Below are positions 3,201 to 6,200 of a stretch of DNA of 64,000 bases, piece by piece (the first letter of the stretch is position 1; each line of letters starts with the position of its first letter). Below the pieces are notes generated by a model. It was not told where the DNA came from. It searched no databases and saw nothing but the letters and a program-made list of their open reading frames with translations. Made by a program: the position numbers and the translations under genes. The DNA is from Lingula anatina (lineage: Eukaryota; Animalia; Brachiopoda), in the NCBI GenBank assembly GCA_051362555.1, contig CM120643.1:21456848-21520847 (forward strand), in the 5' to 3' direction.

Positions 3201-6200
3201 CCAAGATGTTATTAATAAACACTATGAAGACTGCTGACACAAAATGAAAGTGCTATCCAGCAGAAAATTGATAACATAAAATTTCATTTAAAAACATGAT
3301 AACTGGACATACAAAGTTAAAACAACTAATTTTTTTTAATTAGAAAAGATAACTTGTTTTTTTCTTTTTTTTCCCGAAGAATTCATAACCATCATGTTTG
3401 AATGACCTACAGATGATTAATTCCTGGTGTTCAGTTGTGACATACCTTGCTAAACCTCCATAGTCCAGACCCTCCTCTCCACGGAATATTATATACAGCC
3501 TCCGGCGAAGATCAAAGGGCTGCAGACGCATGATCTAACAAAGGATAATGGAAAACATAAATGGCTATTCTGTCTCCAAGGCCATTTTTCTTCTGCAAAA
3601 AATCTTTGCTTGGATTTATATATGAAGATGGCGGGTGCTTATTGATTATTTTCAATATATATTTGTCAATTTATCCTTGTTTTTTTTAAAAACTTTTGTT
3701 GATCTCTTAGTATAAAAGATTGAAAATGTTTTTATCTAACTTTCACACAAAACTAAATATCACCGAAGCTTTAGAAAGTACTGAATAATACTAAGCTTTG
3801 AAAAGCAATATCTTCAACATTATTATTTCATTTTTCAAATATACATGTAAAAAAAAAAACATTCATTTAACAGTTTCTGAATTCAATGAAAAAAACTTGC
3901 AGTATTATGCCATGCTTATAACAGCCCGAGCTTCTGCAAATCACTGCCATTGCCCAGCAATCAATCCTTTCATCTTACACACAATCAGTTACTATGCAAA
4001 TTTCATCATTTTTAAATCTATGAAACATTTTTAAATCTATGAAACTATCCAAAGTTACATTCATCCCATAGTTGGAAAAATCCCCAGTACTTTCATTTCT
4101 CATTTATAAAAAAAAAAAATTCTAAACAGGAAAACATATGCAGCAAAATTATGAAGCAGTGATGATCTTTCCAAGCTTAAATTTGAAGCACACCATTTCA
4201 TTTCAATTCTTTGAATCAATGAGAATCAAATAAATTATTTATTAAAATGCATTACCTGTTGAAAAGATTCCTCAAACATGTTCTCTCGACTCAAGCTAAT
4301 TTTCACATGTCCTGGCAAAGCATTGGACTGAGGAGGAGGAGGACACAAGAACCAATCAGTATAATTGTATGATGGATTAGGTGAACTTTCAACTGATTAG
4401 TATGGATTATATGGCTATCGATCATTATAATACACCACCTTTCTGATATGATGTTCTTTGCCCAGTTTCACAAAAGAAATTTAGCTGGAAAGTTAGTCCC
4501 AACTGTAAGACCAAAAATTTTATTCTACTTTGATACAAGACGAATCTATAATGGTCCAAATGCACTGCTTTAATGACAACAGAGAAAATAGCTAATGTTT
4601 CAGTTACTCAATTTAAGTGGACTGCTATGCATTTATCCTAAAGTAGATCAAAACTTTGTGGTCATAAAATTTGGACCAACTTTTAATCTGAATTTTTTTT
4701 TCTGTGAAACCTTGAACGGTGGTAGGATCACAGCCAAACAGCAGCAGAAATGGCAGTGGATTCAAACATTTCTCAGTGGATTAGTATAAATCATATGCAA
4801 AAATCCATACATATATCAGCAAGGTTCATTGTGCCTGGATTATATCTGTTCTGTTCAGCTCCCTGCTGGATCAATTATGATATGCAGAAAAATAAGCAAT
4901 ATGGTTTCACCATGCAGAAAGCAAAGTCATGGCATACTGGTAAGCTGGTATCATAGCAACCCATAGAAGATACCATGGTTACGACCCTTTTACCTGAGAA
5001 AAGGACTCTTCAAAGAGGCTATTTCTGCTCAGAGATATTTTTACATGTCCAGGAAGAGAGTTAGACTGAAGATGGGGATAATGGGAGAGAAATAAAATAA
5101 ACAAACAAAAATTGTAAAAAAATAAACACTGTAAATTAGATAGGAGTGCTGATGTTTTGAAGAGTACTCATAATAAGTCAAGTATCTTATATATCTTATA
5201 CATACAGTGATATTCAGAAAGGAATTAGCAAAACTGAAATCTATTTACATAAAATAAATTTAAATTAAAATGAAAACCAGCACCCTGCAGTGAAATTAAT
5301 ATCATTATTATGTTAGAGATGTATCCCAAAGATCCAAAATAACAATATAATGTAAAACTATCAAAATATGCATTAAAAAATCAAGAACAAAACAAAATAA
5401 TAATAATAATAATTTCCCAAAAGTTGCTTTTATTTGGACTTTACAAAAATGGTACTTAAACTGATAACAAACCTTGAAGAAAGTACTAATAACAAACCTT
5501 GAAGAAAGTAAGTTATTTATCTTCTTGTCGGTTTATTAATATTGTAATTTATTTGTTCTCTTAATTTTAGTTTATTTGAAAGATTAATTCCCTATCCCTA
5601 GTTAACAAAACAGTTACAGTGATGAAAATCACAAACTTACCTGACAGAGATATCTGAACTGACCAAGCTTCCAGCGGAAACTTCTCTCATATTGAATGGG
5701 AACACCATAAGCTCCTTTGGGCCTGGGAAAGATAATCGTATAATGAATCGTAAGTGACACTAGGTTAATCAACTATATCAATTACACTCCAATGCATATT
5801 TGATAGTCTGTTATGTTAACCACCAAACACAGGCCAAACACCAGTAAAATTGAAGCCAGGTCAATAAAATTTTCAAGTTTTCAAGTCCAGCTGGTTCTAA
5901 GACCCTGGTGGTATAAAGGGCCAGTAAGTCTTTTTTTTAAATTTTTGGTAAAGACTGTTTAGACAGACTTACCCCTTTGCAGGTTTCCCTCTAGGATCTT
6001 GGAATGTTGTAGAACGTGAGTTATGATCAACAAAGTAGCGCACACCTTCAGGTGTATATCTCATTTCCCAGCCCTCAGGTAAGGGATCTTCCTGAATTAT
6101 ACTGAAATATACAAACAATTACAATAACAGCAAACATTTAGACATAAACCTACACCCATTCCAGATCAGCATCTGAACATACCTTACAACAAGGTACATT

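Follow-up and report, generated by a model that had tools for sequence, protein, structure and literature searches.

The 64,000-nucleotide stretch of Lingula anatina DNA analysed here (the window; GenBank assembly GCA_051362555.1, contig CM120643.1, positions 21,456,848 to 21,520,847, numbered below from its first letter) carries a gene for a HECT-domain ubiquitin ligase, in which two neighbouring exons of 72 nucleotides (nt) encode two versions of the same piece of the HECT domain. The mapped part of the gene lies at 228..19954 on the minus strand and encodes the C2, four WW and HECT domains, residues about 17-794 of 850; the final HECT exon or exons lie beyond the window start. An exon neighbouring the pair is a 100% match to a named Lingula anatina Su(dx)/WWP ligase, the protein contains PF00168, PF00397 and PF00632 with four WW repeats, and its closest solved structure is human WWP1 (6j1x, E value 2e-293). 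By these matches, the host gene belongs to the WWP/ITCH/Su(dx) branch of the NEDD4 ligases. The human HECT ligases WWP1, WWP2 and ITCH and yeast Rsp5 have the same layout of C2, four WW and HECT domains, and the equivalent of the exon can be located in them by residue offsets.

Two neighbouring exons for one structural element

In the direction of transcription, a common upstream exon (5641..5722; the end of the linker after WW4 and the first HECT helix, placed by tblastn of RefSeq isoform X1 and by junction reads) is followed by a 575-nt GT-AG intron (5066..5640), the upstream exon copy, here called copy B (4994-5065), a 666-nt intron (4328..4993), the downstream copy, copy A (4256-4327), a 721-nt GT-AG intron (3535..4255), and a common downstream exon (3446..3534), all on the minus strand. 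The last exon was placed by junction reads and tblastn, and it contains an acidic loop equivalent to Rsp5 E491-D495 by its spacing to the Rsp5 numbering. Both copies are in phase 0-0, with intact AG acceptors behind pyrimidine tracts and intact GT donors. Thus, copies A and B are neighbouring exons of equal length and frame encoding the same structural element. Counted within the exon, copy B has a neutral residue 15 and Ser 16, and copy A has Glu 15 and Asn 16.

The two peptides are identical at 19 of 24 residues and the two exons at 47 of 72 nt. At 13 of the 19 identical residues the codons differ, and one common serine comes from unrelated codon families. Each peptide alone matches human WWP1/WWP2 HECT chains (best E values 3e-6 for A and 5e-5 for B), and therefore the likeness is not a matter of chance. 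The proportion of synonymous sites that differ (pS) is 0.92, which is saturated, and that of nonsynonymous sites (pN) is 0.19. Three read variants inside the copies and five checked in the flanking exons are all synonymous. The first-pass annotation, made from the sequence alone, had described two 72-nt, phase-0 exons with intact splice sites and had proposed an old duplication with both copies under purifying selection; its coordinates, translations, residue identities and codon counts were all reproduced, and the pS and pN values and the synonymous variants agree with its proposal. An assembly artefact or a dead exon copy was also considered and was ruled out, with next to no probability left to it, by spliced reads through both copies, saturated synonymous divergence, and tandem copies elsewhere.

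Both Lingula products are already in RefSeq as automatic models. The protein cluster of the host gene has two members of 850 residues, isoform X1 (XP_013380650) with copy A and isoform X2 (XP_013380651) with copy B, each exon encoding residues 488-511; their sole differences are at residues 490, 502, 503, 504, and 510. The two models represent the same two products as described here, but no statement on exclusivity, regulation, conservation, or function was seen with them.

Either-or use in RNA and the separation of the copies

RNA runs X1, X4, X7, and X5 were mapped on positions 2950-6150 (four of nine available runs, with X2, X3, X6, X8, and X9 left out), using about 6-25% of the reads of each run. 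Junctions were listed from a floor of 3 reads at 2 starts, and joints with 1-2 reads may thus be hidden. In the order of runs given above, the upstream exon is joined to copy A by 6, 6, 10, and 0 reads (22 in all) and copy A to the downstream exon by 18, 3, 22, and 0 reads, while the upstream exon is joined to copy B by 0, 8, 2, and 1 reads and copy B to the downstream exon by 0, 12, 1, and 5 reads (18 in all). These make 94 single-inclusion junction reads, 65 for copy A and 29 for copy B, with A:B ratios of 24:0 in X1, 9:20 in X4, 32:3 in X7, and 0:6 in X5. The ratio varies among the runs (chi-square p of about 1e-9 for the downstream joint). The junction reads from each copy bridge the other copy (22 from the upstream exon to A, 18 from B to the downstream exon), and three stranded runs put the RNA on the minus strand. 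Neither a joint from B to A nor a joint skipping both copies is listed beside the 94 reads at the floor of 3 reads, and a junction across the intron between the copies alone was never listed; independent cassette exons would predict about 7 joined or double-skip reads in X4 by arithmetic from the junction counts. By the listed junctions, the pair is mutually exclusive in Lingula, and the proportions of the two forms differ between samples. Mutually exclusive use is what the first-pass annotation had proposed: the junctions 5641->5065 (three of the four runs), 5641->4327, 4994->3534, and 4256->3534 (three of the four runs) that it named for a check were all found, and 4994->4327 is not listed. 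A low intronic depth was seen just ahead of each acceptor, at 4341-4554 and 5090-5196 and mainly in X4 and X5; it is probably unspliced RNA.

Several features of the data set weigh against this reading of the RNA. A rule allowing not even a single joined read is inapplicable here, since junctions with 1-2 reads fall below the listing floor. Only four of the nine runs were mapped, at about 6-25% of their reads. Finally, the B-rich runs X4 and X5 share one study, so that the effects of tissue, stage, population, and library type cannot be told apart. Differences among populations, cryptic species, or library types, rather than regulation by tissue or stage, may then account for the A:B ratios; the unspecified selection method common to X4 and X5 and the different single-letter variants carried by the runs fit this explanation. 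However, X4 and X7 each hold both forms, spliced at identical genomic positions, and RefSeq models both forms on one scaffold. An origin of the ratios in populations or libraries is thus considered quite improbable, and sample-dependent, either-or splicing is preferred.

How are the two copies kept apart? As the first-pass annotation had stated, double inclusion would stay in frame. The length of each exon is divisible by three, and a frame shift followed by decay does not apply as a means of exclusion in Lingula, where double inclusion and double skipping of 72-nt exons both keep the frame. A mismatch with the minor spliceosome does not apply either, since the three donors are all ordinary GT sites (judged by the minor-class consensus as generally known). 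A steric rule requires less than 50 nt from the donor to the branch point (PMC5740500). Lingula does not fit this rule: the intron between the copies has 666 nt, and branch-point-like words, by the commonly known consensus, lie 29, 50, and 70 nt upstream of the A acceptor with an AG-free zone of 56 nt. No strong RNA pairing was found between the Lingula introns, since duplexes as good as the best ones arose in 1, 5, and 2 of 10 shuffles; no hairpin behind copy B rose above shuffles (z 0.1), and the only inverted repeats in 3440-5730 were AT-rich pairs of the sort expected by chance. Because frame-shift decay, spliceosome mismatch, and a short intron are not applicable and no strong pairing was found, control by splicing factors would be the likeliest means of exclusion in Lingula, by elimination. 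The intron between the copies has one GCATG at 4915 and three ACTAAY words, which, given the generally known meanings of these motifs, are no evidence by themselves.

Two observations were made elsewhere in the host gene. At 830-1033 on the minus strand, ahead of the HECT exon starting near 853, the intron holds two or three decayed partial copies of the acceptor and the first 30-40 nt of that exon, about 80 nt apart and 71-74% identical. The nearest of them carries an AG of its own and reads into a stop about 12 codons on; the copies are possibly decoy or unproductive acceptors. By eye, the large intron in the C2 region, at about 12500-17000, contains several arrays of long degenerate repeats.

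Distribution and history of the pair

Is the pair found in other animals? Among 449 proteins, 434 carry the exon, and one of the 434 carries it twice, the gene model P0033 of Owenia fusiformis. A model with two copies in one protein would be the typical output of a gene finder for an either-or pair. Metagenome contigs were also scanned with a motif of the upstream exon, which gave 86 loci (68 genomic with the upstream intron, nine genomic without it, eight spliced, and one cut off). Two annelid-like loci, L031 and L043, each contain a tandem pair of exons with AG and GT ends, at 4044-4258 and 3424-3633, respectively (gene-strand coordinates). In a gene tree made without the exon, with 38 rows chosen by coverage, L031 lies in a lophotrochozoan clade (support 100/98), outside the molluscs and near the annelids without firm support, and a separate placement puts L043 beside L031. 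The tandem pair, as predicted from these sequences, thus recurs in the Owenia gene model and in L031 and L043 with the same polarity at residue 15 as in Lingula, which is new. In L031 and L043, the intron between the copies has only 71 and 66 nt, the other introns there having about 89 and 97 nt at least, and predicted branch-like words lie at most 44 nt (L031) and 39 nt (L043) from the donor of the short intron. The predicted distances would fit the steric rule of less than 50 nt (PMC5740500), and an intron of 66-71 nt would enforce exclusion sterically.

Tandem copies were found in no other member of the protein sets. The isoform sets of oysters, scallops, mussels, octopus, abalone, amphioxus, and acorn worm show one exon version per species, where genomes may differ, and those of bird and shark WWP1 and of amphioxus show a single version of the neutral-15 type. 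In the 39 single-copy genomic loci, no remnant of a second copy was detected, the best secondary match scoring like the reverse strand. In nine loci (the bivalve-like L018, L040, and L058, and L010, L011, L023, L076, L079, and L080), the intron before the exon has been lost, so that the exon and its upstream neighbour form one piece, and an upstream alternative copy is ruled out there.

In a survey of residue 15 with one species per genus, the residue is acidic in 15 of 15 molluscs and in 5 of 5 single-copy annelids, in one of 17 outgroup proteins (a tunicate), and in neither of two nemerteans. The tunicate-like proteins P0212, P0213, P0295, and P0296 have an acidic residue 15 with Asn 16, apparently by convergence. 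In all four tandem pairs, namely those of Lingula, Owenia, L031, and L043, residue 15 is neutral in the upstream copy and acidic in the downstream copy, and position 16 is Ser or Thr in the upstream copy and Asn or Gly in the downstream copy; as L031 and L043 are close kin, the four pairs count as about three lineages. In each pair, the upstream copy also scores as more like the outgroups than the downstream copy (upstream/downstream: +4.3/-6.2 in Lingula, +29.2/-7.7 in Owenia, +2.2/-3.8 in L031, and +8.3/-3.8 in L043). The upstream copy of Owenia equals the amphioxus exon at 22 of 24 residues, a match that reversion would hardly produce. Should the acidic type have arisen only once for molluscs, annelids, and Lingula, then the two types coexisted in the common ancestor. 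It is on the whole probable that the duplication predates the split of annelids, molluscs, and brachiopods.

Three findings tell against copy B of Lingula being a direct descendant of the old upstream copy. The exon tree joins Lingula A and B (87/89, not starred), the two have in common residues at positions 12 and 20 seen in no other panel protein, and copy B is nearer to the downstream copy of L031 (pN 0.23) than to the upstream copy (pN 0.36). The tree has 24 columns and little power to decide orthology; by the approximately unbiased test (p-AU), the alternatives scored 0.405 for all acidic-type copies together (not rejected), 0.074 for the Owenia copies as sisters, and 0.199 for the four L031/L043 copies as one clade. 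It leans towards a Lingula-specific re-duplication. A later re-duplication, with copy B converging on a neutral residue 15, has a little better than an even chance, and descent of copy B from the old upstream copy with partial homogenisation has somewhat less than that.

One annelid-like clade has two WWP genes, each with a single copy of the exon but in different versions. In 15 pairs of loci (e.g., L001/L016, L021/L041, and L065/L020), one gene of each kind shares a contig-name prefix with the other, and in five of these pairs one contig is without the exon. The two paralog lineages form one starred clade (97/84). Paralog 1 has Thr 16 and His 23, as in the upstream copy of Owenia (25 loci), and paralog 2 has Asn or His 16 and Gln 23 (21 loci), the type scores being +5.3 and -8.1; yet both have Gly 6 and an acidic residue 15 and no remnant of a second copy. 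Subfunctionalisation of splice forms after gene duplication is a published concept (PMC4417111). The paralog exons resemble such a case in that their differences at positions 16 and 23 run the same way, but they depart from it in that both are acidic at residue 15 with Gly 6, and one lies on a long branch, so that convergence is possible. A partition of old splice forms between these paralogs may be taken as a tentative lead.

The site of the switch and its possible effect

The predicted model of isoform X1 (mean predicted local distance difference test score, pLDDT, of 67, and 75-87 across the exon region) places a strand at 494-499, followed by a turn at 500-503 and a helix at 504-514. Thus, the piece encoded by the exon runs from the first HECT strand through a turn into the beginning of the next helix, and the crystal-based assignment for the same ITCH exon agrees with this model (PMC5740500 Dataset EV4). 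By chain offsets, the exon corresponds to WWP1 560-583, Rsp5 448-471, and Smurf2 386-409, and its invariant Arg at position 14 to Rsp5 R461 and Smurf2 R399. The full lengths of WWP1 and Smurf2 behind these offsets are assumed, and the offsets were verified by the spacing of Y543/W549, R461/E491/D495, and R399/F403 in the papers. Three of the five differences between A and B are at positions 15-17, and the main one, Glu in A and Asn in B at position 15, adjoins Arg 14. Residue 15 was compared with the counterpart of Rsp5 L506 for covariation, and none was seen. The exon Arg may also be the counterpart of E6AP R506. The E6AP changes R506C/H cause loss of function (PMC8635412). In Rsp5, R461 adjoins L506, the docking site of the C-terminal Phe806, and is modelled with E491 and R74 of ubiquitin; R461F hinders ligation but not thioester formation (PMC3738095).

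The charge change at residue 15 may therefore be proposed to alter the local network in which the Arg helps to dock the C-lobe and the ubiquitin tail for ligation, and it may also alter a surface used for autoinhibition. The exchange of A for B would then tune the activity of the enzyme, a possibility that the first-pass annotation had raised. Taken together, it is quite likely that a tandem exon pair, spliced one at a time and in a sample-dependent manner, gives two ligases of the same length that differ in the speed of ligation or in the tightness of autoinhibition. An effect on ligation is favoured, one on autoinhibition comes second, and no effect comes third.

The switch may instead act mainly on autoinhibition or partner binding, either because positions 14-18 lie in a surface covered by an N-terminal domain or a regulator or because copy B, unlike copy A, has a phosphorylation site in its Ser 16. 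Smurf2 R399, E401, I402, and F403 are listed in a docking protocol as a C2-binding surface from earlier nuclear magnetic resonance (NMR) work (PMC6761206), and position 16 is Ser or Thr upstream against Asn or Gly downstream in all four pairs. But the full-length structure of Nedd4-2 places the C2 domain elsewhere than the Smurf2 NMR map does (PMC12106849), and the lock of WWP1 consists of WW2, the linker, and WW4, with the named contacts outside the exon (PMC6639328). In the model, position 16 is just ahead of the helix. Ser, Thr, Asn, and Gly are all common helix caps, which counts against this reading. A switch mainly of autoinhibition or binding is thus unlikely, though it has somewhat more in its favour than the next explanation, in which the copies are regulated but functionally equivalent, each kept as the sole form in some cells while the five differences do nothing.

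Equivalence is improbable in my view, but the main objections to a difference in activity are found here. Positions 15-17 tolerate many residues across animals, so the five differences may be near-neutral, and in many lineages there is just one copy, of the one type or the other: most relatives manage on one copy, with two in only one of the 434 exon-bearing proteins, and a single copy is present at 39 of the 40 genomic loci that reach across both introns (nearly all from one clade, and not 39 independent cases). The upstream copy of L043 is drifting, with five replacements relative to L031 and none in the downstream copy. Mutational data for Rsp5 462-464 were not found in the text of PMC3738095 as far as it was available, and the variable residues are not among the WW and linker contacts of the WWP1 multi-lock named in PMC6639328. 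Against equivalence are the same polarity at residue 15 in all four tandem pairs, from about three independent lineages, the sample-dependent use of the copies, and the clustering of the differences beside a ligation residue. Two ligases differing in activity are therefore preferred to two equivalent ones.

The class to which the pair belongs is well known. As in the catalogues of tandem-duplicated mutually exclusive exons (PMC5740500, PMC9741552), the copies are homologous neighbours of the same length and phase, of which one is used at a time in a sample-dependent manner, and they are old and keep the fold; what differs is the host, a HECT ligase in a brachiopod. What is new is the read evidence for either-or, sample-dependent use, the recurrence with the same polarity, and the site beside a ligation residue. 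The first-pass annotation knew of no exon pair of this kind in these genes, and this holds in part. No description of the Lingula pair was found by titles and abstract openings, in a search largely outside subscription journals. ITCH, WWP, NEDD4, and HECT are absent from the available main text and one supplement of PMC9741552 and from one supplement of PMC8373072 (whether these supplements are gene lists is unconfirmed), and the searched passages of PMC12192809 on shrimp Su(dx) isoforms contain nothing on this exon. However, RefSeq models both isoforms, and the ITCH exon is already in PMC5740500 with a poorly similar partner. Human ITCH cluster 1872 pairs the same 72-nt, phase 0-0 exon with a 78-nt intronic candidate (Datasets EV4 and EV5), which is one of 1,399 exons with validation from one or more junction reads. 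This human partner shows little similarity to the exon and lacks a structure mapping, and two of three expression sets give no value for it, whereas the Lingula copies are both intact and each predominates in some runs.

A broader history may be imagined, though taken as a whole it is rather unlikely: one exon duplication in a common ancestor of annelids, molluscs, and brachiopods, of Cambrian age, would have created a charge switch beside the ligation arginine of the WWP ligase; Lingula, Owenia, and some other annelid-like animals would still toggle it through splicing; molluscs would have fixed the acidic form and nemerteans kept the neutral one; one annelid-like clade would have split the forms between two genes; and human ITCH would retain a decayed partner. 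The site would then be a recurrent natural tuning point of HECT catalysis, unexplored by mutagenesis. Owenia has an early-branching position among the annelids.

Control of the NEDD4 family is known through N-terminal locks and phosphorylation, and the spliced switch described here lies inside the catalytic domain. The residue following the ligation arginine is a candidate tuning site, testable by one substitution in human WWP1, WWP2, or ITCH. The exon pair may account for the difference of molluscs and most annelids from other animals at this motif, and the retention, loss, and possible partition between paralogs of one exon pair would be traceable across phyla, with two ways of keeping the copies apart.
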